This document shows positions 590-47,223 of a DNA stretch of 52,407 nt, in pieces (the stretch's first letter is position 1; each line of letters opens with the position of its first letter). This DNA comes from a virus. The notes below the pieces were generated by a model. The model was not told the origin of the DNA. It worked only from the letters and a program-made list of their open reading frames with translations, and ran no database searches. Both the position numbers and the translations under genes were made by a program. The stretch lies in UHGV virus genome UHGV-0113213; one strand, given 5' to 3'.

Positions 590-624
590 TGTGATCTGTG
601 TTACATTTCTGGCTTATACAAAAT
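590..624 (+). promoter_or_regulatory. CRP-like palindrome TGTGATCTGTGTTACA (590-605) followed by TACAAAATG element (612-624); candidate promoter region for lipoprotein moron
   Basis: Match to TGTGA-N6-TCACA consensus read directly; same element pair recurs upstream of other morons; -35/-10 not cleanly assignable here. Confidence 0.35.
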
Positions 625-721
625 GTATTTATTGATTTATATCAATATCCGAAATGTTGTTTTGTCGGATATTTAAGCCACCGGATGAACCTGGCGAGCT
701 AACGAGAATGGGGATTCAAAA

Positions 722-970
722 ATGAAAAACATGCTCAAAGTGGTATTATTCGCTGCGGCTGTTGCTCTTACTGGTTGTGCTGTTGACAAAGATGCTGCAT
801 TGCACAACCTGCCAAATAGCGGAGTAATTCCTCAAGAAATTGTCTATGATGCTAATGGTCATCTTGTCTATGACACTGAAAAACTTCCATATACTGGTCA
901 ATGGTGTCATGAACTAGATCACAATATGCGCCGCATCGGTAGCCCGTCGAATTGTGTAGCTAACTACTAA
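722..970 (+). CDS. Small lipoprotein (82 aa), opposite-strand moron between side fibre and J; candidate superinfection-exclusion lipoprotein
   Basis: N-terminal signal peptide with lipobox LTGC (MKNMLKVVLFAAAVALTGCA); own terminator; position analogous to Cor/Llp-type lipoprotein morons near tail fibre genes. Confidence 0.65.
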   Translation: MKNMLKVVLFAAAVALTGCAVDKDAALHNLPNSGVIPQEIVYDANGHLVYDTEKLPYTGQWCHELDHNMRRIGSPSNCVANY

Positions 971-976
971 AAGAAA

Positions 977-1002
977 ACCCCGCGCAAAGCGGGGTTATTT
1001 TT
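977..1002. terminator. Bidirectional rho-independent terminator between lipoprotein moron and J
   Basis: GC stem CCCCGC...GCGGGG flanked by A-run on one side and T-run on the other. Confidence 0.7.
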
Positions 1003-4000
1003 ATGACCACGATCCAGAGCTTCTTGTGACAAGGACTAGGCCTGGTCTCCTTATTGCCGCTGATGATGTATTTGTGTAGTTTTCTGTAACAGTTACGGAA
1101 ACATGCTGAGATGTAATACCTGAAACACAATGAACGGCAACGTCTGACTTGTGGGGCGTTGATGCCGCCCTTTCTATGTCTATAGTCTTTGAATTTCCGT
1201 TAATGTTTATGGTTACGTTAATGCGTCCCGACTGGTTATATGTATAGTAAGCAAGGTTATAAGGTATCATTACATAAACCGTTTTCGATAAAGCAGATGA
1301 TGATGAATCCCAATAATTTTTGGTTACACTCCTGCTACCTGACCCTGATTGCGCAGGGAATGTTGCCTCTGGAATTACTGACATACTCGCAACGTCACCA
1401 ACAAAGGATGTAGCTTCTACAGTGCCTCTGAATTTACCGTCAGTCGCGTAAACAGTACCGTTAAACACACCAGAATTAGCGTATACCGTGCCGCGTACTG
1501 TAACGTTGTTAAATGTAGCCCAGCCATCTTTAACTATTGCCCAACCTTGATCGCTACCGTTCCAATTGTATGACGTTATGACATTGCCTATTTTTGCATT
1601 GTCGATTGAACCGTCTTTAATAAACGCTTCGCGCACATACATTGCGCCGTTAGTGACATAGAAAGGTGTCTGATATGTGCCGTTTGCGGCAGTCATTAAC
1701 ACGAATCGGTCAACAAGGAAAATGCACTGCGATTGAACATCAGTACCGCTGCCAGTGAGGCCAAGTGACATTCCTGTTGCGTATTTCATACCGTTGTTAT
1801 CAGTGGCAATCTTGATTGAATATGACGCATCAACGTTACCTTTAAAATCGGTTAACGCTTTCGATGTTGTCTCGATCGCTGTTGTGTTTCCGTTAACGGT
1901 CACTTTCAATTGATCAATTTTTGTCGATAATGCCTCATCTGCCGTTGACATGGCCTGCGACCATTCCGTGATGCTTGAGTTTACATCGTCGAAAGATGCC
2001 GATATTTGAACAAATTTTTCAGCACTTGATGCCTCGTGAGTTGCGAGCGCCGTTGATATATCTGTTATTTTTGCTGAAATGTTTTCATTAATATTGGCTT
2101 CAAGTGATGCTATAGCCTCCGCGCGGGCCTGTGTTTCGTCTGCTATTGCTGTGTCAATCCTTGCTATTTCCGCTTTTGTTTTTATCTGGCCTTTCCTGTA
2201 TTTTGCCTCAATAACGGTGCTCATCTTGCTTTGCGCTATTGAGTTGTTGATAAGTGCAATCGAGGCGTTTTGCAGACTTGCTTTCGCCTGTTCTATCTTG
2301 TCACTGTTTTTATCAACATCACTTTCAACAGAACCAAGCTCCGCACTGATGCCTGATATTGCCTGGGCGCGAGCGCTTGATTCGTCGGCGATAGCTTGAT
2401 CAAGGCGGCTAACACTGGCATTTGTGCTATTTTCAAGCGTTGTTAAATCAGCTTTAACATCTGTTATTGCGTCGCTTCTTGCCTGCGTTTCATCTGATAT
2501 TGCTTTATCGAGACGAGAAACGCTCGCGTCAGTTTTGTTTTCCAGGCTGCTGATACTGGCGTTAACGTTGCTTATAGCCTCCGTTCTAGCCTGCGTTTCG
2601 GTTGCGATTGCTTTGTCAACGCGGGCGATTTCCCCTTTGGTGCTGGAGTCCATTGCGTTCATTTCTGCTGTGATGGTTTCCAGTGATTCCGCTGTCGCTT
2701 TTTTCTCATCTGCGATAACGTTGTCGATACGGTCAATCTGTGCCTTTGTTTCGTTGCGACCTTTCTTATATTGAGCGGTAAGAGTAACCCGCGTGTTAGT
2801 TTGAGCAAGCGAGTTGTTGATCAGAGCAAGCGAAGCGTTTTGTAAACTTGCTTTTGTCTGTGCCAGTTCGTTATTAACGTTTTCGTTTGATACCTCTAAT
2901 GAGTCTATTCTTACCTCATGTTTGCCTATTCCATCGGCGTTTTCTTCGACTTTTTTATAAAGGTCTTCGGTGTCTTTTTTAAGTGTATCTGTATCAGCTT
3001 TAAGGCCATCTGTAGCTGTTTTAAGGTCGGCGGTTGCTGTTTTAAGGTCGGCGGTTGCGCTTTCTATAATATCAGTGCGATCACCAAGATCCTTAATATC
3101 ACTTACCAATTCCTTAAATTGCTCTGAGTTCATCACGTCTTTGGTGACATAGTCGCTGATTTCATCGAAGTTTTCAGTTGGCTTACCTGACGCCTCAACG
3201 AAGTCTGACACGCCAAAGGCATTGCGCGTGCGCACATAAACGTAATAAGTATGGCCCGTGTTCATTCCACCGAACGTCCACTGATACCCGCGCCCGGTAA
3301 ACTGCGCAGACGTGGTTATTTTTGCAGGATCTGTAATCTGGTTTTTCCCTGCATAGTAGAACTCATACGCTGTATCAGTTGTTAGCGTTGTTTTGCTTAT
3401 CGGGTACACTGTAGCCTGAAATACACCTGGAACCCAGTTAACGCCTATTGGCGAGGCTGGTGCACCAATAACAAGATCAACAATACTTTCAGCGCCCTTC
3501 ATGCCAGTATCATTTCTTCCGCGAACGCCTAACGAATACGCGCCAGCGTCGATGCCATAAAAATCATAACTGTATTTCGTTGTTTCGTAGCTTTTAACAA
3601 CCGCACCATCTGTGTTATATATGCGGATCTCAAAGGTCATGCGATGTGTTGTTGTCTGTGTCTCCCATGTTGCGCGGCATTGAACCGTTTCAGATCCAAT
3701 GTTTACCACCTTCAGATTTTCAATGCTCGGCACGCGGAAGTGATTAAGCGTGTCGTTGTTGATTTCAAATATAGCGCCTTCATCGACTACTGCTTGTTTG
3801 TTCGGGTCATGTTGCGCTGCTTCGATGGTGTACACGCTGTTGTTTTCAGTTTCTGCTACGCTGATGATTCGACATAAAACGGGTTTTGCAGATTCGGTTG
3901 ATACAGCAAAAACAGTACCGTTCCGAATCCATGCCGGGGCTGCTGCCAGTGTGATTTTGTTCCCGTTAACACCAGTGATCTGATGTTTTTTAAATTTGCC

Positions 4001-5578: not shown

Positions 5579-5592
5579 GGTTAATTCTCCTG

Positions 5593-6797: not shown

Positions 6798-6799
6798 GA

Positions 6800-7504: not shown

Positions 7505-7522
7505 TTTCTCACCTTGTCATTC

Positions 7523-7587
7523 TGTGATCTGCGTCACGCTAAATCATACCAAAATGGATTGATCGCGGTTTTTACAATATGTATATT
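7523..7587 (+). promoter_or_regulatory. Moron promoter: CRP-like site TGTGATCTGCGTCACG (7523-7538), TACCAAAATGGA element, -35 TTGATC (7559-7564), 17-bp spacer, -10 TATATT (7582-7587)
   Basis: Hexamers and spacing read directly; CRP-like centre ~63 bp upstream of predicted start site (class I-like position). Confidence 0.5.
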
Positions 7588-7633
7588 TTACTCAAACGGA
7601 AGCATAGTTAACAAAATGGCGCGGAGGTGCGTT

Positions 7634-7822
7634 ATGACTGAAAAGCTATGGAAGTTGACGGTATTCATGACAGACGGTAGGGAAAAGGTTATCGCCCTGT
7701 ATGACGACGAGGGTGAAGCATTGGTTGACGCGCTTTTACTTGCTGAGGATGACCGCCTTTTGGGATACCAGATCGAACCTGTCAAATATGAGGCTAACAA
7801 AAATGAAAAAATACAGTCTTGA
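7634..7822 (+). CDS. Small acidic protein (62 aa), moron gene 1 between L and M
   Basis: ATG with GGAGGTG RBS; strongly acidic composition (DDEGEALVDALLLAEDD); opposite strand to tail operon. Confidence 0.6.
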   Translation: MTEKLWKLTVFMTDGREKVIALYDDEGEALVDALLLAEDDRLLGYQIEPVKYEANKNEKIQS

Positions 7823-8150
7823 TGTGTGGTTAAGTGGTAGCAAGGAGTGTTTCGGATTATTTGATAGCGAAGAAGTAGCCCTGGAAGAAGGCAGGATTCT
7901 TGAATGTAGTTTAGGCCATCCAGTGAAATATGCTGCTAATCCGGTACAGATAGTTGATGAGGTGGAAGATATGAACCCGAAAGATATTAATGGTAGCTTC
8001 ACTGCTTATTATGCAGATTCTATGGACCAGTCTTGCCCTGGTGAAATACACGCAAAAGGTTTCCCGGCTGACGATCCAGAAGCAAAACGCGAATACGAAA
8101 AAGCGGCGAAAGATTTCTGTATCGATAACCTTTCAGCATTCGATAAATAA
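7803..8150 (+). CDS. Acidic protein (115 aa), moron gene 2
   Basis: Start MKKYSL overlaps end of previous gene in another frame; acidic; no recognisable family. Confidence 0.6.
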   Translation: MKKYSLDVWLSGSKECFGLFDSEEVALEEGRILECSLGHPVKYAANPVQIVDEVEDMNPKDINGSFTAYYADSMDQSCPGEIHAKGFPADDPEAKREYEKAAKDFCIDNLSAFDK

Positions 8151-8159
8151 GGCGGCAAC

Positions 8160-8408
8160 ATGGGGCGGCGCAATCACGGTGATTATGTGTACACGTTGAA
8201 ACAGGCCGCCCGCCTCATCGGTTATCATGAACACGAATTTATTGATTTGCTGATTGAGCGCGGGATACTGTACCAGGTCTGTTTAACGCTGTACCCGAAA
8301 GCGAAATACCTACATGAAAAGTTATTCATCATCATGACGGATGAAAACCAGGTTAACCATTCATTCGTCACTGATAAGGGCGTTAATTATCTGCGTGATA
8401 ACTTATAG
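8160..8408 (+). CDS. Small protein (82 aa) with possible HTH (YTLKQAARLIGYHEHEFIDLLIERGIL), moron gene 3
   Basis: ORF 10 nt after previous stop; helix-turn-helix-like segment by eye. Confidence 0.5.
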   Translation: MGRRNHGDYVYTLKQAARLIGYHEHEFIDLLIERGILYQVCLTLYPKAKYLHEKLFIIMTDENQVNHSFVTDKGVNYLRDNL

Positions 8409-8530: not shown

Positions 8531-8568
8531 AATAAAAATAACCCCGCTTCGCGCGGGGTCGTGTTTAT
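8531..8568. terminator. Bidirectional terminator after moron cassette (stem CCCCGC/GCGGGG; stronger U-run on minus strand)
   Basis: Hairpin with A-run upstream and T-rich run downstream on plus strand. Confidence 0.55.
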
Positions 8569-8762
8569 ACGCCATCAACCAAAAATAAAACCTCCTTCCC
8601 TTCCCGGGATCTACACCCAACGTACCCATCACCAACGTCGTGAAGATACCATATATCGCCGTTGTCAGCTTTTACAGTAAGGTCGTTGATCTCATAGTCG
8701 TCAAACAATGTAAAAGCGTAAGTTTTGTCAACTACACAAGTCCCGTACATAACAACCCCCAT
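8565..8762 (-). CDS. Small protein (65 aa) inserted between M and L; member of the small paralog family seen at 28676-29581
   Basis: Start overlaps M stop (TAATG); shares C...F...Y and D-x-G-D-x-W-Y motif pattern with the tandem paralogs. Confidence 0.5.
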   Translation of the reverse strand: MGVVMYGTCVVDKTYAFTLFDDYEINDLTVKADNGDIWYLHDVGDGYVGCRSREGKEVLFLVDGV

Positions 8763-9115
8763 TAGCCAACAACTTGCTCAAACGTTGCGTTTAGCGTGTA
8801 CAAAGGCCCGTCTTTAGTCATACTCCATTGCCGACAGACAAAAAGCCTTTGCACGTTATCCATTGACGGCGACCAGTAAAAAGCCTCGACCGCGCCGCGC
8901 GCCCTCAAGAATGCTTCCGCCTGGATTGCTACGTTTCCACCATCACCACATCCGGCGCTACTGCCTTTAAACACCAGGGTGTAGCTATCAAGCAATGGAT
9001 TGATACCTTTTACCTGTCTTTGCTCATAACCATCGCCCAGCTTAACAACAGATACGTCTGGCTTCCTGGTCACGCTGTAGCTTCTTTGCGGCGTCCATCT
9101 GAACACTTCCGGCAT
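8762..9115 (-). CDS. M: Minor tail protein M
   Basis: 117 aa; FRW, GDGY.QR, ATFEQVV motifs as in lambda M; GGGGG RBS. Confidence 0.8.
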   Translation of the reverse strand: MPEVFRWTPQRSYSVTRKPDVSVVKLGDGYEQRQVKGINPLLDSYTLVFKGSSAGCGDGGNVAIQAEAFLRARGAVEAFYWSPSMDNVQRLFVCRQWSMTKDGPLYTLNATFEQVVG

Positions 9116-9150
9116 AAAACCCCCACAAGTTACATTTTGTATATATCTTT

Positions 9151-9178
9151 ACGCGCTTCTACGCGAAAAATAAGATCA
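9151..9178. repeat. TACGCG direct-repeat element TTTACGCGCTTCTACGCGAAAAATA (copy 1)
   Basis: Near-identical 25-27-bp copy at 21418-21445; both lie just upstream of minus-strand structural genes (M, portal). Confidence 0.6.
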
Positions 9179-9200
9179 TTGTCACAATGATTATAGCTAG

Positions 9201-9242
9201 TTTACAAAATGGCTTCACATAGCACGCAACAAGATGTATATA
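9201..9242 (+). promoter_or_regulatory. Moron promoter: TTTACAAAATGGC element, -35 TTCACA (9214-9219), 17-bp spacer, -10 TATATA (9237-9242)
   Basis: Read directly; about 40 bp upstream of the 9283 start codon. Confidence 0.5.
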
Positions 9243-9282: not shown

Positions 9283-9438
9283 ATGAAACGCTATGTAGTA
9301 GTAATGCTAAATAACGCATTCGAACAAGTGGAAATAGCAATCGTTAAGGGTTTCGACGACGCATTCAAATACGGTCAATTCATGATGAATGCGAAAGAAG
9401 ATGAATACCGGGACTTCTTCCTGAAGGCACTTAACTAA
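9283..9438 (+). CDS. Small protein (51 aa), moron gene between M and H (not in ORF track, below 60 aa)
   Basis: ATG preceded by AAGGAGG RBS; MKRYVVVMLNNAFEQVEIAIVKGFDDAFKYGQFMMNAKEDEYRDFFLKALN. Confidence 0.5.
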   Translation: MKRYVVVMLNNAFEQVEIAIVKGFDDAFKYGQFMMNAKEDEYRDFFLKALN

Positions 9439-9455
9439 GGATGATGGGGTGAGTT

Positions 9456-9710
9456 ATGAAACTGGTAGCGATTGACAGAAATCTGAAAGCACAGAAAAAC
9501 GCACAGGACCGGATCATCAAGAAAGGTAAGGAATTACTTAAAGCCTTTCTGAGAAAAGAAGTTTACCCCAAAAAGTTACGCGACGGTTACGGATACAAAA
9601 TGGATATCAATCTTGATTGGAGGCTGTTTAGCGAAGATTTGAAGGTTTGGTTAATTGTTGAGCACCGTGCCTATAACAAGTTATGTGGCGTGAAAGGCAC
9701 TCATAAGTGA
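9456..9710 (+). CDS. Small basic protein (84 aa), second gene of M-H moron
   Basis: RBS GGGGTGAG; Lys/Arg-rich; followed by terminator. Confidence 0.55.
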   Translation: MKLVAIDRNLKAQKNAQDRIIKKGKELLKAFLRKEVYPKKLRDGYGYKMDINLDWRLFSEDLKVWLIVEHRAYNKLCGVKGTHK

Positions 9711-9801: not shown

Positions 9802-12139
9802 TGCGGCGAGGTTGCAACATTCCGCCTGGTCTTTGAGATTCCCTTGTTATCATTTTCATGGCTACACGTTCCATTGTTAATTCAAGTCTGCGGCTGTCTT
9901 CGTCGCTGAATCCGTTCGTGGTCTGAATGCTGATACTGACAGGCATACTAATACCGCCACCGCCGCCAATATCACGGCCCGGAATAACTCTGCCGTTCTC
10001 GCCAGGGATCATATATTGATTGCCGTTAGATGTCTGGAATAGCTCCGGCCTGTTGTGTTCCCCTACGCGGTACATATTACCACCAATGACGCTACCACCA
10101 TTAAAGCGACCGCCGCCGAAAATTGACGTAGCCAGCGACATGATCGCAGTGAGCGCCGCCGAACCAGCCGCCGCCCAGCTACCGCCAGTTGACGCCGCAG
10201 TTGCCGCCGCTGCTGGGGCCGCCGCCGCAGCAATGCTTCCCTGAGCTGCTACCGCGCTTGCTGTTGTACTTGTTTGCGTGGCCTTGCTTTGTGTCTCCAT
10301 CATGATCTGATCTGCTATCCAGTTTGCAGCTATGTCTGAGAGTCTGTTACCGATATTGCCGAGTATATTGCTTCCTAAGTTAGCAAAAACATCACTCAAT
10401 GATTGAGTGCCGTTTAACAGGCCAACAAGCGCATTACTCATTCCGCCTTTAAGGCCATTAACACAATCACCGATAAGGCCGTTTGTGTCGCTTTGCGCCT
10501 GCCATTGTTCCCATTTCAGATCGCGGATCTGTTGCTCATAGGCTAACAATTCCTGTTTCTGTTGCGCTTCAGTAGCGCCCAGGTCTATAAGCATTTGCTT
10601 ACGGATGGCCCATTCATTTTGCGCCTGCTGGATGGGGTCAACTTCGCCTTTTAGCTGATCCATCGGGCTTACTATTTGTGACCATTTATCACGCAATTCA
10701 TCTACCGGAATTTGTGCTAATTCTTCTTTCAGTTCCTTGCCGATCCCTTTTTGCGCGGCGCGGTACTCAAGGAGCGTGATTTTACCCTGGGCAAATGCAG
10801 CATCAATGGCCTTGCCGTTCTCCAACGCTTTGCGCATGGCGGCGGCGTCTTTGTTGTACTGATCAGAAACGCTTATACCTTTGTCACCAAGCCGATCAGC
10901 TTCCGATTTCTTCTCTTTTTTCTGTTTTTTCGGCTTGTCTACTGGCTTGTCGAATCCGGTAATCGCTCCGTCATTGGCAGCATTCTGTTCATTTTTCCTT
11001 GCTTCTTCTGTAGCCTGGATTGCTGCGGTCAGATCATCCTGTAGTTGCATGACCTTGCCAACGGTCTTCCCGTATTTCTTCTCGTAGTTGCTGTTATATT
11101 CGTCGGTTTGCTCTCCTACTACCTCCTTCATCCATTTATAGCCATCCATTAGCGCCTTGATTGGCGTCACCATTGCGATGATCTTCTCTGCCACCTCTCC
11201 AGCCTTAACAGCCACATCATCAAACATGTCGATAAATTCGCTACCAGCCGTTTTGAGTGTGTCGAAGCAGGTTTTAGCGAATTTAGCGCCATCGCCAAGC
11301 CCTTTAACGCCTTTCGTGATCAAGTCGATAGCTGAAACAACGCCATCTGACACGCCAAAAAGATCATCCAACTGCTCAACAAGGCCCATAATTTCTACTT
11401 TAAGCTCATTGATAGCCATGCCGGATGTGCGCGGCAACTGAGCAAACTTATCGTTTGTTTCCTGCGTAGCCGCCTGTATTGCGTTAACCATCCTTTCAGC
11501 CGTGATCTTGCCGTCCAGCATTTCGGCGCGGAACTGGCCCATTGATAATCCCATATGGCGGGCCATTGTTTGTACGATGGTCGGCGTATTTTCAAGCAGG
11601 CTGTTAAATTCTTCGGCACGAAGAACACCGCCGTCGATAGACTGACGGAATTGACGCATTGAGTTAGACATCTGTTCCGCTGACGCGCCGCCTAATGCAC
11701 CCATTTTCTGAATAGTGCCAACCAGGTTAAGCAATTGCCCTTCCGTAGCGGAGGTGTTTTTTAGTGAGATAGCCAGGCCTTGCCATAATTCGCCAGTATC
11801 TTTCAGGCTCTGCCCCGTCTCCCTGGATATTGCTTTCAGGCCGTCGAAAACCCGTCCGGCGGACTCCGCATCGCCCGTAAGCATTTTGATTTTTACGCGA
11901 AGCATTTTTGCTTGCTCCGCCATATCCATAAATTGGCGCACAGCCTCCGCAGCAATTAGCAGATGGATAACCCTGGTCAGTGCCTTGATGGATGTTTTCA
12001 GGGTGTTTACCTGGCGGTCAGCCTGTTTTGCGCCGCGCTCTATACGATCAAAGGCCTGGTCTGCCTGTCGTTGTGCAACGAGAAGTTGACCAGTTTTCGC
12101 ATCAACTTCGTAATAAATTGTACCTACACTGGTAGCCAT
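9797..12139 (-). CDS. H: Tail tape measure protein H (780 aa)
   Basis: Long alpha-helical/Ala-Gln-rich protein with Gly-rich C-terminal region; position upstream of M-L-K-I-J. Confidence 0.85.
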   Translation of the reverse strand: MATSVGTIYYEVDAKTGQLLVAQRQADQAFDRIERGAKQADRQVNTLKTSIKALTRVIHLLIAAEAVRQFMDMAEQAKMLRVKIKMLTGDAESAGRVFDGLKAISRETGQSLKDTGELWQGLAISLKNTSATEGQLLNLVGTIQKMGALGGASAEQMSNSMRQFRQSIDGGVLRAEEFNSLLENTPTIVQTMARHMGLSMGQFRAEMLDGKITAERMVNAIQAATQETNDKFAQLPRTSGMAINELKVEIMGLVEQLDDLFGVSDGVVSAIDLITKGVKGLGDGAKFAKTCFDTLKTAGSEFIDMFDDVAVKAGEVAEKIIAMVTPIKALMDGYKWMKEVVGEQTDEYNSNYEKKYGKTVGKVMQLQDDLTAAIQATEEARKNEQNAANDGAITGFDKPVDKPKKQKKEKKSEADRLGDKGISVSDQYNKDAAAMRKALENGKAIDAAFAQGKITLLEYRAAQKGIGKELKEELAQIPVDELRDKWSQIVSPMDQLKGEVDPIQQAQNEWAIRKQMLIDLGATEAQQKQELLAYEQQIRDLKWEQWQAQSDTNGLIGDCVNGLKGGMSNALVGLLNGTQSLSDVFANLGSNILGNIGNRLSDIAANWIADQIMMETQSKATQTSTTASAVAAQGSIAAAAAPAAAATAASTGGSWAAAGSAALTAIMSLATSIFGGGRFNGGSVIGGNMYRVGEHNRPELFQTSNGNQYMIPGENGRVIPGRDIGGGGGISMPVSISIQTTNGFSDEDSRRLELTMERVAMKMITRESQRPGGMLQPRRK

Positions 12140-12159: not shown

Positions 12160-12221
12160 TGTGATCTGTGTATCTATTTTATACAAAATGGCTTTACTTC
12201 AACGACTCCATTTTGTATAAG
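12160..12221 (+). promoter_or_regulatory. Lipoprotein moron promoter: CRP-like TGTGATCTGTGTATCT (12160-12175), TACAAAATGGC, -35 TTTACT (12193-12198), 17-bp spacer, -10 TATAAG (12216-12221)
   Basis: Read directly; CRP-like centre ~61 bp upstream of predicted start site. Confidence 0.45.
12179..12220. repeat. Perfect 13-bp inverted repeat TTATACAAAATGG / CCATTTTGTATAA with 16-bp spacer in the H / lipoprotein divergent region
   Basis: Arms at 12179-12191 and 12208-12220 are exact reverse complements. Confidence 0.75.
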
Positions 12222-12266: not shown

Positions 12267-12926
12267 ATGAAACGGTTAGCAAAAGTGGCAATGATTGCGG
12301 CGGTATTGGGTCTGGTTGGTTGCAATGAGGATAATGAAAAAGCGCCTATAGTGACCAATCAAGAGCAACAAGCATTAGTAGAGAAAAATGCTAAATGGCT
12401 TGCAGAACAACAAGCAAAACAAGCCGCATACGATGCACAGTTAGAAAAAGAAAATGCTGGTAAACAGTGGCTTGTAGTTGAAAGAAAAGATGATATGCAG
12501 GACGCAAAAAACGTATTCCTTTTTGTGAAAGCAGAACAATTCAGCGGAAGTCTTGATGCTTTCCCGACACTGAAGGCACAGGATAAGAATAAACCGGTAT
12601 TAACAATCGCTTGCCAGGGTAATAAAACAAAAATGTTCGTAGCATGGTCACACCATGTAACTGACGCCGGGGACACTACTTATATTAACTACCGGATCGG
12701 CGTTCACAAAGCTGTAGCTACTGAGTGGTGGCGGTCAACTAATTATAAAGCTCTTGGATTATGGGACGGCAAAAAAGCCATCCCAATGATTAAAAAACTG
12801 GTTAACGAAAAACAATTCATCATTGAAGTAGTGCCGGAAGCTGGCGACATTGAGAAAGCAGTGTTTAACATTGATGGTCTTTATAACCACATCGACAAAG
12901 TGAAAAACGCTTGCAACTGGAATTAA
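12267..12926 (+). CDS. Lipoprotein (219 aa), moron between H and tail chaperone
   Basis: Signal peptide with lipobox LVGC (MKRLAKVAMIAAVLGLVGCNE); opposite strand to structural operon. Confidence 0.7.
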   Translation: MKRLAKVAMIAAVLGLVGCNEDNEKAPIVTNQEQQALVEKNAKWLAEQQAKQAAYDAQLEKENAGKQWLVVERKDDMQDAKNVFLFVKAEQFSGSLDAFPTLKAQDKNKPVLTIACQGNKTKMFVAWSHHVTDAGDTTYINYRIGVHKAVATEWWRSTNYKALGLWDGKKAIPMIKKLVNEKQFIIEVVPEAGDIEKAVFNIDGLYNHIDKVKNACNWN

Positions 12927-12936
12927 GGGGTAAATC

Positions 12937-13311
12937 ATGAAAAAAATAATCAAAGCGGTTCTCATTGGTGTTATGGCTTTAGCTCTTACAGGGTGCGCAA
13001 GATCAACTGATTTCGTTAAGTTAGCTGATAAAAATTTGCAAGTTGGAATGACTTGTGAGCAAGTGAATAAAATAATGGGGGAACCACAAAGAATCGAGCA
13101 TGACGGTAATTATAGTTATCACGTATGGTATTCAGTAACCAGCACGATAGGATTTACTTACATGGATGTTGAAGAATTATCCCCTTCAAGGGTTATCGCA
13201 AAGTTTGATAACTGCATCCTAAAAGAATGGAAAGATCGCAGTAAGGCAAAGTCTGTATACAATACAATCACACACAGTTCACCAGGTACAGCAATTAAAG
13301 ATTTCAATTAG
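12937..13311 (+). CDS. Lipoprotein (124 aa), second moron gene
   Basis: Signal peptide with lipobox LTGC (MKKIIKAVLIGVMALALTGCA). Confidence 0.7.
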   Translation: MKKIIKAVLIGVMALALTGCARSTDFVKLADKNLQVGMTCEQVNKIMGEPQRIEHDGNYSYHVWYSVTSTIGFTYMDVEELSPSRVIAKFDNCILKEWKDRSKAKSVYNTITHSSPGTAIKDFN

Positions 13312-28298: not shown

Positions 28299-28577
28299 TT
28301 ATGCCATGCGTGCAAATTCAAGTGATTTGCATTCGTAGTCTTCCTCTGCCTGTTCGATGACTGCCATCATCATTTCGTTTGCGTTGTTGAATGCGTTGCT
28401 TTGTGCGAACTTGTCGGCTCCACCTTCTTCTTCGAACTCCGCGTTGTTTGCTGCAATGTAGTGATATTCGATGTTGTTCAGGTAAGGGCTTGCAGCGTGT
28501 GCTGGGTCTTCTTTCTCCACCATCTCCCAAAATGCGTTTAAGCGAGATTCGACTTCTTTGTTAATCCAGCGTTTCAT
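28299..28577 (-). CDS. Hypothetical protein (92 aa)
   Basis: First gene downstream of the 28613-28674 promoter; GGAGGG RBS. Confidence 0.5.
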   Translation of the reverse strand: MKRWINKEVESRLNAFWEMVEKEDPAHAASPYLNNIEYHYIAANNAEFEEEGGADKFAQSNAFNNANEMMMAVIEQAEEDYECKSLEFARMA

Positions 28578-28612: not shown

Positions 28613-28674
28613 TTTATAACAAAATGGCACTGCCGAAACAATGCCATTTCGTAAACCTTGTGATACAGATCACA
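28613..28674 (-). promoter_or_regulatory. Promoter with near-consensus CRP-like palindrome TGTGATCTGTATCACA (28659-28674), TTTACGAAATGGCA element, -35 TTGTTT (28636-28641), 17 bp, -10 TATAAA (28613-28618)
   Basis: Read on minus strand; CRP-like centre ~61 bp upstream of predicted start. Confidence 0.5.
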
Positions 28675-31628: not shown

Positions 31629-31909
31629 TTCACATCACATTTAATTGCGAATACTCTCACCGGATCAGTGCCGAATAATGGATGTGTGATAGTTTTCACT
31701 TCGTACCCAAAATAAGGAAGGTTAATAATCCTGTGTTTTTCGTGGTTGGCAGGGTATCCCCATTTAATAATCAGGCGCTCATATTCCCGCCCTTCCAGAC
31801 GTTTACGCCAATAGTCATTATAAAGCCGGTATTCCTCCACCTTCTTTCCCGCCCGGATAGCGTGGAAATATTCCCCTTTCAGATTCAAATGCAGGTCTTT
31901 ACTTGCCAT
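31601..31909 (-). CDS. ASCH-domain-like protein (start uncertain)
   Basis: Motif EYFHAIRAGKKVEEYR resembles ASCH/PUA-like G-K-K-x-x-E-x-R signature. Confidence 0.45.
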   Translation of the reverse strand: MASKDLHLNLKGEYFHAIRAGKKVEEYRLYNDYWRKRLEGREYERLIIKWGYPANHEKHRIINLPYFGYEVKTITHPLFGTDPVRVFAIKCDVNWMLRWVEQ

Positions 31910-34825: not shown

Positions 34826-34864
34826 TTCTACGCATTTCAGCGCTGCCGGATTTTTAAAGAGCAT
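34826..34864 (-). promoter_or_regulatory. Internal nut-like site: boxA ATGCTCTTTAAAAATCCGG plus hairpin CGCUGAAAUGCG
   Basis: 18-mer identical to the rightward-leader boxA at 43321-43339; same 3-nt spacing to a short GAA-containing hairpin. Confidence 0.45.
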
Positions 34865-34960
34865 TTTGTTTGCTTGAAGTATACAAAATGGATACCCCCA
34901 AACAAGGCAAAAAGCGCCATTATGTGATCCGCATCACGCAATGATGCCATTTTGTAAACT

Positions 34961-35725
34961 TTAGTCCGGTAAAATGCGGTTAAGCGTAGTACGAGTGATG
35001 GCCCGGTCGTTAGCCAGGAATACAGCACGGGCAAAGCCGCGCGGCGTTAGTGAGCGGATCATCTTAGTGCGTTTCGACTCTCCTCCTAACTTCGCGTGCT
35101 GTTTGCTGTCTTCCCATTCATCCGGCATAGGTACAGGCCGGAATAGCGGCTGCTTAAATCCATTCCCGCACCAGATACAAGTTTTCTTCGTGTATGCGTC
35201 GCGGGCAGCTATGTATTCAGGGAAAGCAGGGTGTTTGTCGTCTTCAGGCAGGTAGCCACCGTAAGCGCACGGGTTGAAGATAAAATCAGGTTTGCGCCAT
35301 AACGTTGACAGCGCACCTACCGGATTTTCCACCATCCACGGGACGTGGTACATATCAGCAAGCGTTTCTACCAGTTTTGCGTTGTATACCGCCTTCTGCT
35401 GGAAGTAAGGTTCTTTTTTCCGCTTATCAGCAAACCAGCGAGCGCCGGACACCGCAAGATCGTCGCACGGAGGAAAGCCCAGGATAATGTCAGGATCTGG
35501 ATAAACAGACAATTCAGGGGAGAACATTACCAGGAAATGGCTGTCAATCCATACGTTGATATACTCAATGTTCGGATGAATGATTTTGACGCCTTCATAA
35601 TCGCCGTGATTAGCGCCATCATAGTTGAAGCAATAGCATTTATAACCAGCGTCGGCCCAATCTTTAACGGCGTATCCGCTGCCGTCGTACAGCGACCACA
35701 CCACCCAATTTCTAAGCCCACTCAT
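34961..35725 (-). CDS. C5-cytosine DNA methyltransferase-like protein (divergent, 254 aa)
   Basis: Motif I-like LYDGSGYA, catalytic PC-like GFPPCDDLAVSG, ENV-like ENPVGA. Confidence 0.5.
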   Translation of the reverse strand: MSGLRNWVVWSLYDGSGYAVKDWADAGYKCYCFNYDGANHGDYEGVKIIHPNIEYINVWIDSHFLVMFSPELSVYPDPDIILGFPPCDDLAVSGARWFADKRKKEPYFQQKAVYNAKLVETLADMYHVPWMVENPVGALSTLWRKPDFIFNPCAYGGYLPEDDKHPAFPEYIAARDAYTKKTCIWCGNGFKQPLFRPVPMPDEWEDSKQHAKLGGESKRTKMIRSLTPRGFARAVFLANDRAITRTTLNRILPD

Positions 35726-38025: not shown

Positions 38026-38027
38026 AA

Positions 38028-38246: not shown

Positions 38247-38344
38247 CTTGTTTCCTCCGTGCCGTAAACCTCTTAATTTCAGTTTACAAAACGGATATGC
38301 GATCGCAATACAAAATGTATATTTATGTGATCGCAATCACGCTG

Positions 38345-38965: not shown

Positions 38966-38976
38966 AATATTTACCC

Positions 38977-39872: not shown

Positions 39873-39875
39873 AAC

Positions 39876-39995
39876 TCACCCCAACAATGCAACAATTAAT
39901 TCAGCAATAAAAACGGCGACATAAAAAGAAGCTGTGATATAAATCACCCCAATAACGAAGGCGGCGGCTAATGCCGCAATTTTTACCATGCTCAT
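39876..39995 (-). CDS. Mini-gene, 39-aa membrane peptide MSMVKIAALAAAFVIGVIYITASFYVAVFIAELIVALLG
   Basis: ATGA overlap with upstream gene stop. Confidence 0.4.
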   Translation of the reverse strand: MSMVKIAALAAAFVIGVIYITASFYVAVFIAELIVALLG

Positions 39996-40509: not shown

Positions 40510-40524
40510 CGCTAACCTATTGGA

Positions 40525-41689: not shown

Positions 41690-41719
41690 AATGTCATCTC
41701 CGGATGTTTACATTTTGTA

Positions 41720-42010
41720 TTAATGGTAGCGGACTTTATCCAGGGGTTTTTCCCCTAAATGGCGTGGTTGCGTTGCGTGGTAGTAGCTGCCGCTTTCATT
41801 TTCCGTATACCATTTTACTGATCCTTTGCGACGTTCTTTAATGCTATTTGGTTTGCATCTTTCCTCGTTTGCAAATCGAATAGCTTTATCCACATTGTCT
41901 GTTTTATTGATTGCAGGTGATGATTTTCTTTCGTTTTCTCTTTTTATCCTTCTGCGTTCCCTGGCATTCATTTTGCTATCACATTTACCATATATAATTG
42001 TAACGCTCAT
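41720..42010 (-). CDS. N: N-like antitermination protein (arginine-rich motif MNARERRRIKRENERK)
   Basis: First gene of leftward operon downstream of pL/nutL; ARM resembles lambda/P22 N; true start may be internal ATG at 41971. Confidence 0.55.
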   Translation of the reverse strand: MSVTIIYGKCDSKMNARERRRIKRENERKSSPAINKTDNVDKAIRFANEERCKPNSIKERRKGSVKWYTENESGSYYHATQPRHLGEKPLDKVRYH

Positions 42011-42066
42011 AATCTGATCTCCGTATATCCTTGATGATACTTAATAAAAAATCATCTTCGTTAATT

Positions 42067-42104
42067 GCCGCACTTCCAGCGGCTGACCAGATTGTTAATG
42101 AGCG
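42067..42104 (-). promoter_or_regulatory. nutL-like site: boxA CGCTCATTAACAATCTGG plus boxB-like hairpin GCCGC-UGGAAGU-GCGGC
   Basis: boxA resembles CGCTCTTA/TGCTCTTTAACAA consensus; 5-bp stem with GAA-containing loop; located between pL and N. Confidence 0.45.
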
Positions 42105-42358
42105 GCTTAACATCTTTCAACTAATCCCGCAATCATCGCCGTTCCCGGCGTGACCTTGCTCACTCCAAGCAAGCTGACTCGTCGCCTTGCGTGCGGTTTC
42201 GTGGGGGATGTAACGCTTTAAACACCCCATGCGCCTTGTTATCAGTGCCGCTTTCGGTCCCCCATCGGGGAGTTACTCCACGGTTGACAAGGTGTTAAGC
42301 CTGATTTTTAAAGTGCCAGGAAGTTGCTTTTGTTACCTGCGCCCTTCCTTTGACTCGC

Positions 42359-42387
42359 AATATACGCCCCGTAAAACATCGAGTCAA
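42359..42387 (-). promoter_or_regulatory. Candidate pL: -35 TTGACT (42382-42387), 17-bp spacer, -10 TATATT (42359-42364), with TACAAAATGGA element immediately upstream
   Basis: Read on minus strand. Confidence 0.45.
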
Positions 42388-42481
42388 TCCATTTTGTATA
42401 CTTTTTTAAAATATTTTATATGCCATTGATATTTAAATAATAAATAACGTTTTCTGTTTACGTTTTGGTGTTTTCCAGGCA

Positions 42482-42510
42482 AAGAAAAGCCGCCATTCGG
42501 CGGCTAATGT
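42482..42510. terminator. Hairpin GCCGCC-ATTC-GGCGGC after cI (U-run on minus strand; weaker on plus)
   Basis: Stem flanked by A-run/T-rich run directly after cI stop. Confidence 0.55.
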
Positions 42511-43158
42511 TTATGGCAGGTTTACGATCTTCGCATCAACCACCACGCCTATAATTTTTGATTCTGGATTCATAGGGATTGGCGGATACAGCGGATTGAG
42601 CGAACGTAAAAGCCTTTGACCTCCATCAATAATCAACTGTTTAAACGTCGGTATCTGCCCTTCCTCAAGCTGGGCTATAACCAGTTTGCCGTCAATAGCT
42701 GGCGCGTGCGGGTCCACAAGTATCATCGTCCCCGCCGGGATGCTCAACCCCTGCGGCGCGTTCATTGATTCACCTTTGGCAACCAGCCAGTAACTGTCAT
42801 CTGAACAAATAACGCTAGTCGTAACGTGTCGTAATGCTGAACGCCTTGCGTCATCCATATTGTTTACTGTGTCCTTCCAGTCAATAACCGGGTAACTACC
42901 TAAATCACGCGGCGGCACGGCCTGAAGTGTATTAGAAACAGAATCATCAATGACCATGCCATCATGTGTAACAGTAAACTGCCGACGACCAAGCTCGCGC
43001 ATAATCCGCGCAATATCTTCAAGATTTGGCTCTCGGCGACCGTTCAGCCAGTGTGACAGGCCGCCTTTAGTTATCCCCATACGATCCGCGAGTGAATCCT
43101 GGCTCATGCCCTGCGCCCGCATGAGCTGCTTTGCTAAGTCATACCATTTTGTTTTCAT
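42511..43158 (-). CDS. cI: CI-like repressor (HTH_XRE plus S24 LexA-type peptidase domain)
   Basis: N-terminal HTH (MSQDSLADRMGITKGGLSHWLNGRR), C-terminal autocleavage-type domain with Ser (GESM) and Lys (KQL) region. Confidence 0.85.
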   Translation of the reverse strand: MKTKWYDLAKQLMRAQGMSQDSLADRMGITKGGLSHWLNGRREPNLEDIARIMRELGRRQFTVTHDGMVIDDSVSNTLQAVPPRDLGSYPVIDWKDTVNNMDDARRSALRHVTTSVICSDDSYWLVAKGESMNAPQGLSIPAGTMILVDPHAPAIDGKLVIAQLEEGQIPTFKQLIIDGGQRLLRSLNPLYPPIPMNPESKIIGVVVDAKIVNLP

Positions 43159-43185
43159 GTCGCTACCCTATAACCTCAAAAAGTT

Positions 43186-43285
43186 TGATGCAAGTCACAA
43201 AACGTGTATTTTAAGCCTTGATCTTAAAATTCCATTTTGTAAACTTGCAGACAAGGTAAGGCCATACTTGCAAAGACGCAAGGAA
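43186..43285. promoter_or_regulatory. Immunity-region operator/promoter segment: inverted repeats CTTGCAGACAAG (43244-43255) and CTTGCAAAGACGCAAG (43267-43282) plus TACAAAATGG element (43232-43244)
   Basis: Palindromes read directly; exact operator boundaries not resolved. Confidence 0.4.
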
Positions 43286-43320
43286 AAAGATAACGGAAGG
43301 CACAAAAAGGCACTTACCTT

Positions 43321-43356
43321 ATGCTCTTTAAAAATCCGGTGTCGCTGCGAAGCGAA
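43321..43356 (+). promoter_or_regulatory. nutR-like site: boxA ATGCTCTTTAAAAATCCGG plus short hairpin CGCUGCGAAGCG
   Basis: boxA close to rrn-type TGCTCTTTAACAA; in leader of rightward operon. Confidence 0.45.
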
Positions 43357-43463
43357 AAACAAATATCACGCAACGGCGGGATCTGTTGAGCGGTCAGTCA
43401 CTGCTATCTAATGCTAATGGGATGCCCGCCCGCGCGTTCACTCTAACCATAGGAGAAAATGCG

Positions 43464-43730
43464 ATGAGTATAAACATGATTAGTAAAGCATGGAACGTAA
43501 AACTTAATAGCCCGATTCAAAAACTTGTCTTAATGGCTCTGGCTGAAAAGGCAGATAACAAAGGACGGGTACATGATGCATCACGCAAAGAAGTAGCCGC
43601 AATGTGTGAACTTCCTGTTCATACGGTACATGATGCCTTCGCCGCGTTAATGGATAAAGGATTTGTTTGTCGTCTTGATGCATTCAGTGATGTCTATGTA
43701 GTGATGTTGCCGGGGGGGGATGATCTATGA
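43464..43730 (+). CDS. Winged-HTH protein (HTH_36-like), first gene of rightward operon; replication-initiator N-terminal module or Cro analogue
   Basis: AGGAG RBS; segment SPIQKLVLMALAEKADNKGRVHDASRKEVAAMCELPVHTVHDAFAALMDKGFV. Confidence 0.55.
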   Translation: MSINMISKAWNVKLNSPIQKLVLMALAEKADNKGRVHDASRKEVAAMCELPVHTVHDAFAALMDKGFVCRLDAFSDVYVVMLPGGDDL

Positions 43731-44773: not shown

Positions 44774-44905
44774 CCAATCACGATCCGCAAAAATCCAAAA
44801 TTACCCACAAACAACCTCACCAGCTAGCTAAATCGCATGTGGTGCTACACTTGCTTACCTTTTTGCGATTAGCTCGTTATAGAGCGTTACAGAGAGGATT
44901 TTAAA

Positions 44906-45007
44906 ATGGACGGTAAACACGTTTTCGCCCTGGCTTTTGCCATCGCTGCGGCAATCGCTGTTAACGTCGCCTTGTTCGGCGGATTGTATCTGCTAGTTAA
45001 TCCATAA
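44906..45007 (+). CDS. Mini-gene, 33-aa single-TM peptide MDGKHVFALAFAIAAAIAVNVALFGGLYLLVNP
   Basis: ATG with GAGG RBS in intergenic gap; not in ORF track. Confidence 0.35.
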   Translation: MDGKHVFALAFAIAAAIAVNVALFGGLYLLVNP

Positions 45008-45147
45008 CTACCCTTCTACCTTAAAAATCGAAAATTAGCCACATGATTGCGCTTCTGGCGCAAAAAAGACACTGCAACCTTACAAGTGGGTTACGCGGTG
45101 GGTTTTTGCGTTGTAGCGCGTCTGAGGCGTTTTAAGGAGTTGGATCG

Positions 45148-46071
45148 ATGCGCAAGTTAACACATGATGAACAGGTTGCGGCTATCGCTAAGGTTAATCA
45201 TGATGTCGAAGTGCTTGGGGAAATTGTCAATAACAGGACAAAAGTATCCTGCCGCTGCAAGGTTTGCAGTCACGAATGGTCGGCTAGACCTTACAATCTT
45301 AAAAGCGGTTACGGCTGCCCGAAATGCGCCGGAAAGATGAAATTATCACACGAAGAACAGGTTGCCGCTATCGAGAAGGTTAATTCTGATGTCGAAGTGA
45401 TTGGCGAAATAATAAACGGCGATACAAAAGCATTATGCCGCTGCAAAGTTTGTAATCACGAATGGTCGGCTAAACCTAACAACCTAAAAAACGGGCGCGG
45501 CTGCCCGAAATGTAAAGGTTTAAAAATCGCACAAAGACGAACATTATCACACGAAGAACATTTATCCGCTATCACTAAGGTAAATCATGATATTGAAGTA
45601 TTGGGAGAAATAATAAACGATAGGACAAAAGTATTATGTCGATGCAAGGTTTGTGATCATAAGTGGTCGCCTAGACCTTATGCTATTAAAAGCGGGCAAG
45701 GCTGCCCGAAATGTGCGAAACACGGTTTTTTGTCACACAATTTCGGCAAACTTTACATCATGGTTGATGATCCTGAAGTGCCTACACAAATGAAAATCGG
45801 CGTAAGCGTTAATGAGAACAAGCGAAGAAATCGGGTATTAAAAAGCGCACATAAATCAGGCGTTAGAATCCCTGATTTATGTGTCGTGAAAACGTTAGAA
45901 GGTCCAACCGAAAATATCCATGAATTAGAAAGCACGATGCATAAATATTTCAGCAATTATAAAATTAACTTTCCTGTAAAATTTGATGGCAGTAATGAGT
46001 TTTTCTATTACAGGCCGGAAGTATTCGACATGGTAGAAGAAGCATATAAAGAGATTGTTTGCTGTCAATGA
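45148..46071 (+). CDS. Protein with three tandem ~58-aa zinc-ribbon repeats and C-terminal T5orf172/GIY-YIG-like domain (307 aa)
   Basis: Repeat HEEQVAAI.KVN.DVEV.GEI.N..TK..CRCKVC.HEWSA.P.NLK.G.GCPKC three times; C-terminal GKLYIMVDD...KIGVSVNENKRRNRV. Confidence 0.55.
   Translation: MRKLTHDEQVAAIAKVNHDVEVLGEIVNNRTKVSCRCKVCSHEWSARPYNLKSGYGCPKCAGKMKLSHEEQVAAIEKVNSDVEVIGEIINGDTKALCRCKVCNHEWSAKPNNLKNGRGCPKCKGLKIAQRRTLSHEEHLSAITKVNHDIEVLGEIINDRTKVLCRCKVCDHKWSPRPYAIKSGQGCPKCAKHGFLSHNFGKLYIMVDDPEVPTQMKIGVSVNENKRRNRVLKSAHKSGVRIPDLCVVKTLEGPTENIHELESTMHKYFSNYKINFPVKFDGSNEFFYYRPEVFDMVEEAYKEIVCCQ
45157..45690. repeat. Three tandem ~175-bp DNA repeats (about 80 percent identical) encoding the zinc-ribbon modules
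   Basis: Direct comparison of the three units beginning CACGAAGAACAGGTTGC. Confidence 0.7.
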
Positions 46072-46104
46072 ATATACAAAATGTAAACATGAGGAAATAA
46101 CAAC

Positions 46105-47223
46105 ATGTCACAAAGAAAGATAAGCGATGAGCAATTGATCGCTGAATATAACAACGGTTTAACGTACAAGCAGATCGCTGAAAAATATGGCATGTCAAAA
46201 CGCAACGTCGAGCGCCTGGGCGCAAAGCTGGCGAAACGCGGTTTAATATCCACGCGTCGCGCGCCGGGTTTTGGCGTCAATGGCGAGTCATTGCTAGTTG
46301 ATAAGGATGGCAATGTGATTATGCGCTGGATTAAAACAGCCCGTGATCGCGATGAAATGGAAAGGCTAATGCAAGCGGCTTGCGATGCTTTCACGGAAGA
46401 CATGCCACGCGCTGAGGCTGTGCCAGTGCCGGAAATTGATTTCCAAAAAAGCCTGGCTCTTTATCCGGTATTCGATCTGCATATCGGTGCGCTTGCGCAT
46501 AAAGCTGAATGCGGTGAGAGCTACGACACCGGGATCGCCGAACGTGTGTTAAATGACTTCTTCGACTACGCGGTGGGCGCTGCGCCAATGTCTGAAAAGG
46601 CTGTTTTGTTGTTAGGAGGTGATATTCTTCACACTGACGGCCTGTTACCAGTGACGCCATCAAGCAATCACGTCCTGGATTGCGATTCACGCTACGCAAA
46701 ACTGGTTTACGTGGCGATCCGGTCGGTCCGGCGTGCGGTCGGGAAGATGTTACTAAATCATAAGTATGTCGAGATCCAGACATTATCCGGTAATCACGAC
46801 CAATCAGGGATGATCTGGCTACGTGCGGCGCTGGCGGCTTTTTACGAAGATGAACCGCGCGTAACTGTTGATGTGTCCCCTGCTATCGTTCACCACACAC
46901 AGTACGGCAAAACATTCCTTGCTTACCACCACGGACACACCATCAAAAAACCAGAAAATTTGTTGTCTGCCTGCGTCTCTGACTGGCGGGAGGATTTCGG
47001 CAAGTCGTCGGCGGTTTACGCTCATTGCGGACACTGGCATCACCAACGGCTGATTGAATCATCGTTAGGCGTTGTTGAGTATCACGGCACGTTAGCTGGC
47101 AAAGACGCTTATTCAACAAATGGCGGCTGGCGGTCGCGTCGGCTGGCTGCGGTAATAATTTACAGTCCTGATCATGGGGAAATCGGGCGCTTTGTTTATT
47201 ACCCTGAATATTCCATTTTGTAA
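46105..47223 (+). CDS. HTH-fused calcineurin-like metallophosphoesterase (372 aa)
   Basis: N-terminal HTH (LTYKQIAEKYGMSKRNVERL); phosphoesterase motifs DLHIG, GGDILHTDG, GNHD, GHWHH. Confidence 0.55.
   Translation: MSQRKISDEQLIAEYNNGLTYKQIAEKYGMSKRNVERLGAKLAKRGLISTRRAPGFGVNGESLLVDKDGNVIMRWIKTARDRDEMERLMQAACDAFTEDMPRAEAVPVPEIDFQKSLALYPVFDLHIGALAHKAECGESYDTGIAERVLNDFFDYAVGAAPMSEKAVLLLGGDILHTDGLLPVTPSSNHVLDCDSRYAKLVYVAIRSVRRAVGKMLLNHKYVEIQTLSGNHDQSGMIWLRAALAAFYEDEPRVTVDVSPAIVHHTQYGKTFLAYHHGHTIKKPENLLSACVSDWREDFGKSSAVYAHCGHWHHQRLIESSLGVVEYHGTLAGKDAYSTNGGWRSRRLAAVIIYSPDHGEIGRFVYYPEYSIL

Follow-up and report, generated by a model that had tools for sequence, protein, structure and literature searches.

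A dispersed pseudo-palindromic element as the putative operator of a CI-type repressor in a prophage of the mEp021 group

Introduction

UHGV virus genome UHGV-0113213, analyzed over its whole 52.4-kb stretch (52,407 nt; the window), carries a short element, TACAAAATG, that recurs along both strands, and the question raised by the locus is which protein recognizes it. A sequence-only reading had described an element of 10-13 nt abutting the -35 hexamers of many promoters, and had taken it for a proximal UP-element subsite or for the binding site of a shared regulator. The present analysis favored a shared regulator and found no support for the UP-element subsite: TACAAAATG is most probably the operator core recognized by the CI-type repressor of the prophage (Rep021 family), dispersed over the genome.

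The window represents a prophage of E. coli belonging to the mEp021 / mEpimmI group. It shares 86-89% identity with phage mEp021 and related phages, and was present in 35 complete E. coli genomes. The integrase gene lies at the right end, followed leftwards by a rightward replication operon and then by the CI-type repressor gene, and a long leftward operon runs from an N-like gene through recombination genes, a Q-like gene and lysis genes to the head and tail genes. About half of the phages in a classic collection of Nus-dependent human-gut coliphages are of the mEpimmI type; they constitute one immunity group, in which immunity was conferred by Rep021 in experiment (PMC11893012). The published account of mEpimmI covers the repressor Rep021, the N-like protein Gp17 and three nut sites, with operators and promoters left undescribed (PMC11893012).

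Occurrence and form of the element

The 9-mer TACAAAATG occurred 16 times on both strands of the window (expected 0.75; 0 of 100 dinucleotide shuffles reached 16), at 617+, 9133-, 9203+, 9594+, 12182+, 12209-, 20202-, 34882+, 34948-, 37855+, 38309+, 41711-, 42390-, 43233-, 46075+ and 47214-. Thirteen of these exact copies were intergenic, at gene edges or on a stop codon, and the remaining three appeared to be incidental (9594 and 20202, which fall within a ParE-like gene and the portal gene, respectively, and 37855, which was unconserved among relatives). The recurrence, the expectation of less than one copy and the mostly intergenic placement claimed earlier were thus borne out, with coordinates correct to about 13 nt of the exact copies. 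Both variants exist as well: near 7546 with a 1-nt insertion (7547-7557, TACCAAAATGG), and near 28644 on the minus strand (28645-28653, TACGAAATG). In a near-identical E. coli prophage annotated by PGAP, 6/7 copies fell in the non-coding 15% of the DNA (P = 8e-5).

Alignment of 13 sites extended the element to T[A/T]TACAAAATG[G/T][A/C], and the information profile showed T, C and TG to be invariant in 13/13 sites. The 9-mer forms the core of a pseudo-palindrome of 15-17 bp, (G)TWTACA-AAA-TGKAWW(C), or TWTAC-N5-GTAWA as a 15-mer, with an A/T-rich center; the element is wider than the 10-13 nt described earlier, as part of a pseudo-dyad. The distance of 10 bp between half-sites is suited to a helix-turn-helix dimer. 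At least 8/10 arm positions were matched by 13 of the sites scored, at least 9/10 at only 18 positions in the window, and 10/10 at three sites. Two of the three sites with 10/10 arms lay exactly 25 bp from another copy (roughly estimated from how often arms match in the background, fewer than one such partner is expected by chance), and six site pairs in the window were spaced 24-25 bp, as are OL1 and OL2 in the relatives.

Two simpler explanations of the motif were discarded. As a plain -10 hexamer on the opposite strand, the element carried the key T at -7 in just 6/13 copies, and its information lay in CATTTTGTA and not in the hexamer; the GTATA arm does provide TATAnn at several promoters, and was retained as a consequence of the overlap between operator and -10. 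As start codons, the ATGs of the motif opened reading frames of only 1-10 codons.

The immunity region

The repressor region was 99.7% identical to E. coli prophages in which the gene is annotated as a LexA family protein, and the closest solved structure to the repressor was lambda CI (3BDN). The element was the only long sequence common to the two promoter regions flanking the repressor gene, and its sites overlapped the early promoters on either side (42361-42400 on pL; 43229-43243 on pR; Table 1).

The pL promoter reads TATACAAAATGGAT-TGACT, 17 nt and TATATT, with the strong site overlapping the first two bases of the -35, and its two-site layout was the same as that of the left operators OL2 and OL1 of the Tatumella prophage L139. 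On the other side of the gene, the right-operator (OR) site at 43229-43243 also adjoined or overlapped the -35 region of the promoter that reads leftwards into the repressor gene (-10 TAAAAT), and a nut boxA at 43321 lay 75 nt downstream of the pR candidate. The weak site at 43194 had a better copy as its counterpart in the sister phage L132 (CCATTTTGTGAC), and resembled the middle OR site, TATACATTTTGTGTC, of prophages L137 and L139.

An inverted repeat, TTGACTCG...CGAGTCAA, at 42349-42388 bracketed the pL -35 and transcription start. It was considered as an alternative pL operator; it was only partly conserved in mEp021 and mEp515, and the sister group had a different repeat at this place. 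It is possibly a site of the Cro analogue. Three nut-like sites with boxA TGCTCTTTAAAAATCCGG were located at 43321-43359 (+), 34826-34864 (-) and about 42290-42320 (-), and were the counterparts of nutL, nutR2 and nutR1 in mEp021.

Promoter modules and the UP-element alternative

The pL-type module, in which a site is followed after 2-3 nt by the -35 and after 17 nt by a -10 inside a second site 25 bp away, recurred at five more places. The earlier statement that the element abuts -35 hexamers held at six sigma-70-like promoters (42390-, 9203+, 12182+, 12209-, 7547+ and 28645-), at each of which the 9-mer was separated by 2 nt, or by 3 nt in the case of 28645, from a -35-like hexamer, with a -10-like hexamer 17 nt further on.

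This register is the one on which the UP-element interpretation was built, according to which the element is a proximal subsite contacted by the C-terminal domain of the RNA polymerase alpha subunit (alpha-CTD) that boosts a family of phage promoters. At the six promoters the 9-mer occupied exactly -46 to -38, with AAAA at -43 to -40, as in a proximal subsite of the rrnB P1 type; it fitted 7/9 positions of the proximal consensus, reportedly AAAAAARNR in the 1999 work of Estrem et al., and a very A+T-rich tract preceded it at pL. The interpretation is nevertheless very unlikely. The invariant T and C (-46 and -44) and the invariant TG are specific non-A positions, unlike the A-tract preference of alpha-CTD, and the element has dyad symmetry. 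At all six promoters a second copy lay 25 bp downstream over the -10, which is the OL2/OL1 layout of repression, and other copies overlapped -10 hexamers (pR and the promoter before nutR2) or occupied gene junctions without a promoter. The element was absent from 49 loci (832 kb of tail regions) of distant phages that share only a gpM homologue with the group, whereas palindromic operators of the same sequence, in tandem or triple sets, surrounded homologous repressor genes in unrelated prophages, co-occurring with one repressor family. An OL2-type operator sits just before the -35, which would explain the place of the element, and its 7/9 match to the proximal consensus is best seen as a by-product.

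Conservation in relatives

Copies were found at orthologous positions in mEp021 and mEp515, and likewise in about 80 IMG/VR loci belonging to the group, where their density was 0.22-0.34 copies per kb. In alignments of orthologous regions, which were picked by their flanks without use of the motif, the element formed a conserved island within variable intergenic DNA. At pL, the operator, -35 and -10 were kept while the spacer varied (35 unique relatives); before nutR2, the spacer of the promoter likewise varied between a conserved -35 and a conserved operator/-10 (36 unique relatives); and the pair at 12180/12205 was kept in 22 unique relatives with a variable downstream flank.

These alignments bear on the idea that the copies have no regulatory role and are relics of duplicated promoter cassettes, or linkers for modular recombination between phages. 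Several copies did coincide exactly with the border of a gene or module (41711, 46075, 47214 and those flanking opposite-strand accessory blocks), and the sites at 41711 and 46075 shared 34 nt at 82% identity. However, the spacers and flanks of the six promoters were unrelated, so that these are not recent duplicates, the motif was a conserved island in variable surroundings, and the same element surrounded repressor genes of unrelated phages; an origin of this kind is extremely improbable.

Repressor homologues carrying the same site

Since the element was the sole long sequence common to both promoter regions flanking the repressor gene, homologues of the repressor were searched to see whether the element travels with it. 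The sister phage group (P0008; L132-134) matched the window in gene order and differed in its Cro. Its repressor was 55% identical over the whole protein, with a recognition helix, ITKGGLSHWLNGRR, identical to that of the window, and the group kept TACAAAATG at pL, at OR and at dispersed sites. Between the window and P0008 the N-terminal domain of the repressor was 71% identical and the C-terminal domain 48%, the reverse of the expectation that the DNA-binding domain diverges faster for immunity specificity.

Repressors about 50% identical, with the near-identical recognition helix ITKGAVSHWLN, were found in otherwise unrelated prophages of Enterobacter (L137), Serratia (L138) and Tatumella (L139), and their genes were flanked by TATAC-N5-GTATA sites (e.g., TATACATTTTGTATT and GATACGTTTTGTATA). 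These three loci had OR sets of 2-3 sites between cro and cI and an OL pair 25 bp apart before the N gene or boxA, the operator sets adjoining cro/cII or N genes and boxA; 3/5, 4/4 and 4/5 of the strict matches in these loci were inside OR or OL. In Citrobacter (L135), TACAAAATGGAA was present in OR and a further copy abutted the pL -35. In all, five homologues whose recognition helix is identical or nearly so (L132, L135, L137, L138 and L139) were accompanied by the site. A homologue with an altered helix, KTQGGIGHW (L141), had ATAC-N5-GTAC sites, and a control with a P22-C2-type repressor (L140) had P22-type operators and no TATAC-N5-GTATA site. The more distant repressor loci L049-L051 (38% identity) belonged to unrelated phages and were uninformative. 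Because the element travels with homologous repressors, is altered with an altered helix and is absent in the P22-C2 control, its most likely identity is that of the operator of this family of repressors. What is directly observed comprises the family of sequences and its symmetry, the placement of the sites with respect to promoter-like hexamers, their conservation, and their joint occurrence with a single family of repressors.

Another shared regulator, such as a phage class II activator or a host factor, could in principle bind the element, with the proximity to the repressor gene reflecting only promoter architecture. A fixed place just before the -35 is typical of class II activators, several of the promoters had a poor -35 (e.g., GTCGTT at 12209), and the CRP-like palindromes beside many copies suggest composite regulation. 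On the other hand, the repressor with the conserved helix was the protein seen to accompany the element across the examined loci (full gene content was not compared systematically), the sister group swapped the Cro analogue and kept the motif, the 25-bp tandem with a copy over the -10 is a repression layout, and the consensus pL promoter requires no activator. A different regulator is therefore unlikely. Of the host factor sites considered (TyrR, OmpR, PhoP, Fis, NarL, EvgA, IHF, DnaA and LexA), none is known to fit all the invariant positions, and they are unconfirmed leads.

Proposed action of the repressor

Repressor binding, the repression or activation of individual promoters and a possible part as roadblocks are predictions from the arrangement of the sites. 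At pL, two cooperatively bound dimers, one on OL2 at the -35 and one on OL1 over the spacer and -10, would shut the promoter. At pR and the repressor-gene promoter pRM, the strong site over the pR -10 and beside the repressor-gene -35, with the weak site at the repressor-gene start, would match the logic of lambda OR, and repressor bound at the strong site may also raise transcription of its own gene, in the manner of lambda CI at PRM. In the lysogen, dimers bound to the sites, and cooperatively so at the 25-bp pairs, would shut pL and pR along with the additional promoters, and one repressor might silence about ten promoters across the prophage. The sites at gene junctions could serve as auxiliary looping sites or as roadblocks to read-through, which is conjecture. 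The Cro analogue presumably binds the same sites too.

Several points weigh against the repressor as the reader of the element. In 8/13 sites a G replaces the palindromic T (TACAAAATGG), which makes for a poor right half-site, although this is due in part to the overlap of the right arm with the -35. The strong pL site lies at about -42, a position from which lambda CI activates PRM, and repression of pL would depend on the weaker, G+C-centered downstream site. The window had 1-2 sites at each of OL and OR and its relatives 2-3. Cro-type proteins would bind the same sites, and the data therefore cannot separate the binders. The co-variation test was weak, as every examined repressor with a similar helix also had a similar site, and dispersal in the lambdoid relatives was checked over 6-20 kb only. 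The whole case rests on sequence comparison.

A wider proposal is put forward tentatively, as possible rather than probable: in this prevalent group of human-gut coliphages, a dimer of the lambda CI type may govern the whole prophage through about 20 dispersed operators, in about ten pL-like modules (some of them before tail genes, the antirepressor operon and the toxin module) plus stoperator-like roadblocks at gene junctions, and partly together with host CRP sites. The need for so many operators to co-evolve may then explain the single immunity type and the stronger conservation of the DNA-binding domain compared with the remainder of the repressor.

Dispersed sites

The features located in the window are collected in Table 1.

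Table 1. Putative operators, promoters and accompanying palindromes in the window (positions in nt; x-N-y denotes the -35, spacer length and -10).
Feature	Position	Strand	Remarks
CI-type repressor gene	42511-43158	-	HTH_3 and S24 peptidase, Rep021 family; proposed binder of the element
OL2-type operator, TATACAAAATGGATT	42386-42400	-	Abuts pL -35; geometry as OL2 of Tatumella prophage L139
pL	-35 42387-42382; -10 42364-42359	-	TTGACT, 17-nt spacer, TATATT
OL1-type operator, TTTACGGGGCGTATA	42361-42375		Arms 10/10, G+C-rich center; over pL spacer and -10; 25 bp from OL2
OR1-type operator, TTTACAAAATGGAAT	43229-43243	-	Covers -10 of rightward pR candidate TTGATC-16-TAAACT
Weak OR2-type site, GTCACAAAACGTGTA	43194-43208	+	At predicted start of repressor-gene transcript
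Inverted operator pair	12180-12194 and 12205-12219		25 bp apart; common to two face-to-face promoters
Rightward promoter at 12180		+	TTTACT-17-TATAAG, towards VasI-like gene 12267
Leftward promoter at 12205		-	GTCGTT-17-TATAAA, towards tape-measure gene, start at 12139
Tandem operators	9201-9215 (strong) and 9226-9240 (weak)	+	25 bp apart; promoter TTCACA-17-TATATA, before ParE-like toxin module 9283-9710
Single palindromic site, TATACAAAATGTAAC	9129-9143	-	17 nt before start codon of minor tail gene M (8762-9115); no evident promoter
Tandem operators, TACCAAAATGG variant (7547-7557) and TTTACAATATGTATA (7571-7585, arms 10/10)	7546-7585	+	25 bp apart; promoter TTGATC-17-TATATT
Tandem pair, TACGAAATGG variant (28641-28655) and CCATTTTGT (28616-28630)	28616-28655	-	25 bp apart; leftward promoter TTGTTT-17-TATAAA; target gene 28299-28577
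Operator, TATACAAAATGGATA	34880-34894	+	Reverse strand gives -10 TATACT of leftward promoter TTGTTT-16-TATACT
Operator, TTTACAAAATGGCAT	34944-34958	-	Right after stop codon of gene 34961-35725, right before hairpin and U-run
Tandem operators, TTTACAAAACGGATA and AATACAAAATGTATA	38283-38321	+	24 bp apart; gap of early-left operon
Single site, AATACAAAATGTAAA	41707-41721	-	Exactly between stop codon of N-like gene (41720-42010) and next ribosome-binding site; no promoter
Single site, TATACAAAATGTAAA	46073-46087	+	Arms 10/10; between two genes of rightward replication operon, 21 nt before start codon 46105
Single site, TTTACAAAATGGAAT	47210-47224	-	Overlaps stop codon of gene 46105-47223, just before DnaB-type helicase gene (47242)
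Site TATACAAAATGTATT and weak inverted copy	615-629 and 581-595	+	Upstream of small lipoprotein-like gene 722-970
CRP-like palindromes	590-605, 7523-7538, 28659-28674, 31685-31700, 34923-34938, 38326-38341, 39933-39948, 43184-43199, 46618-46633		

The module at 7546/7571 preceded an operon with a KilAC antirepressor gene (8160-8408), and a weaker third copy was present at 7608-7622. The promoter candidate at 34880 lay about 20 nt upstream of the nutR2 boxA (34864-34826), and the pair at 38283/38307 was associated with weak candidate promoters in both directions (leftward TTGCGA-16-TAAACT, rightward TATGCG-16-TATATT). Single copies at gene junctions without a recognizable promoter were those at 9129, 41707, 46073 and 47210; in mEp021, the site corresponding to 47210 was still beside the helicase start despite an inserted HNH gene. 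Orientation was co-directional with transcription in 10/13 sites and opposite in three (34882, 38309 and 47214).

On the minus strand, the insertion variant at 7541-7557 reads CCATTTTGGTATGAT and makes an extended -10 (TGgTATGAT) towards tail gene L (start 7504), which may be a leftward promoter. Between the two copies in the nin region, a hairpin at 34905-34945 (-) (-19.9 kcal/mol, z = -1.7), followed by UUUUUG, matched the predicted terminator t4 of mEp021, and at this position the sister group had a different hairpin, again between inverted copies of the operator. An RNA stem around the terminator, made by pairing the two nin-region copies, folded only marginally better than shuffles (z = -1.7).

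Comparison with known systems

Like the OL and OR systems of lambda, 434 and P22, the one described here combines a CI-type helix-turn-helix and S24 repressor with 15-17 bp pseudo-palindromes that overlap the -35 and -10 of divergent early promoters; adjacent sites are about 2.4 helical turns apart, and N-type antitermination with nut sites lies downstream. Every testable defining feature of lambdoid CI/Cro operators was found, with binding itself predicted. Unlike the lambdoid phages, the window has 1-2 sites each at OL and OR but more than 15 further sites over 47 kb, some of them in pL-type modules among the tail genes and others standing singly at gene junctions.

The C1 repressor of P1, a temperate E. 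coli phage, has 22 operators dispersed over the genome at many promoters (PMC8546580). The number of sites (about 20) and their spread were similar here, about ten predicted promoter-like modules carrying sites. The P1 operators are asymmetric 17-mers (ATTGCTCTAATAAATTT), whereas those of the window are pseudo-symmetric, often in 25-bp tandem and linked to a repressor like lambda CI. The repressor and the type of site are unrelated to those of P1; C1 is not known to be a CI-type HTH-S24 protein.

The stoperators of mycobacteriophage L5 and other Cluster A phages (gp71-type repressor) number more than 20 and lie at promoters and in short intergenic spaces within operons (PMC9283540). They are asymmetric 13-mers, bound by monomers and oriented with transcription, in contrast to the dyad symmetry and mixed orientation found here. 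The junction sites at 9129, 41707, 46073 and 47210, of about 20 sites in all, resembled stoperators, a block of elongation being conjectural.

The searchable full-text literature yielded no description of the operator TATAC-N5-GTATA or of the motif in its 9-mer and palindromic forms. For the mEpimmI group, the analysis offers a specific operator sequence together with the positions of about 20 sites and of about ten candidate repressor-controlled promoters, all of which can be tested with the existing pRep021 plasmid and lysogens. It also suggests that the antirepressor operon and several accessory blocks of the tail region respond directly to the level of repressor, and possibly to cAMP-CRP. 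If the assignment is true, genome-wide dispersal of operators, so far associated with P1 and the mycobacteriophage stoperators, would extend to a repressor of the lambda type; many operators would also hinder a change of repressor specificity, which would fit, speculatively, the single immunity type and the better-conserved N-terminal domain.

Accompanying elements

Palindromes of the CRP consensus, TGTGA-N6-TCACA, occurred nine times with at most one mismatch (expected 1.4; Table 1), and 5/9 were within 40 nt of an operator copy. A palindrome was centered 25.5 bp before the -35 at two promoters, 12182 and 28645, which places it at about -60.5 relative to the predicted start; the one at 12160-12175, upstream of 12182, was a weaker match outside the nine. 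At the 7559 promoter the distance was 28.5 bp (about -63.5). These are class I CRP positions. In relatives, the arms of these palindromes were conserved and the centers varied. Through them, promoters regulated by the repressor may also come under host cAMP-CRP, or some other phage protein may bind there.

At 632-645, a perfect match to the FNR box, TTGAT-N4-ATCAA, was centered 41.5 bp before a predicted start with a -10-like GATATT at 668-673. It precedes the lipoprotein-like gene 722-970, the counterpart of the superinfection-exclusion lipoprotein gene of mEp021, and the arrangement suggests anaerobic control of that gene.

Four accessory blocks on the opposite strand break the tail operon (722-970, 7635-8408, 9283-9710 and 12267-13311, all +), bounded by near-identical bidirectional terminators (e.g., 970-1004 and 8532-8566). 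Their products are the KilAC antirepressor, the ParE-like toxin with a small upstream open reading frame, the VasI-like protein and the lipoprotein-like protein. A perfect palindrome of 17 bp, ATCATTGT-C-ACAATGAT (9175-9191), immediately preceded the operator at 9201 and the ParE-like module; it was not conserved in mEp021 or mEp515, and is possibly an antitoxin operator. The gene of a zinc-ribbon protein (45148-46071) held three tandem copies of a 173-nt unit, 76-80% identical (45154-45713).

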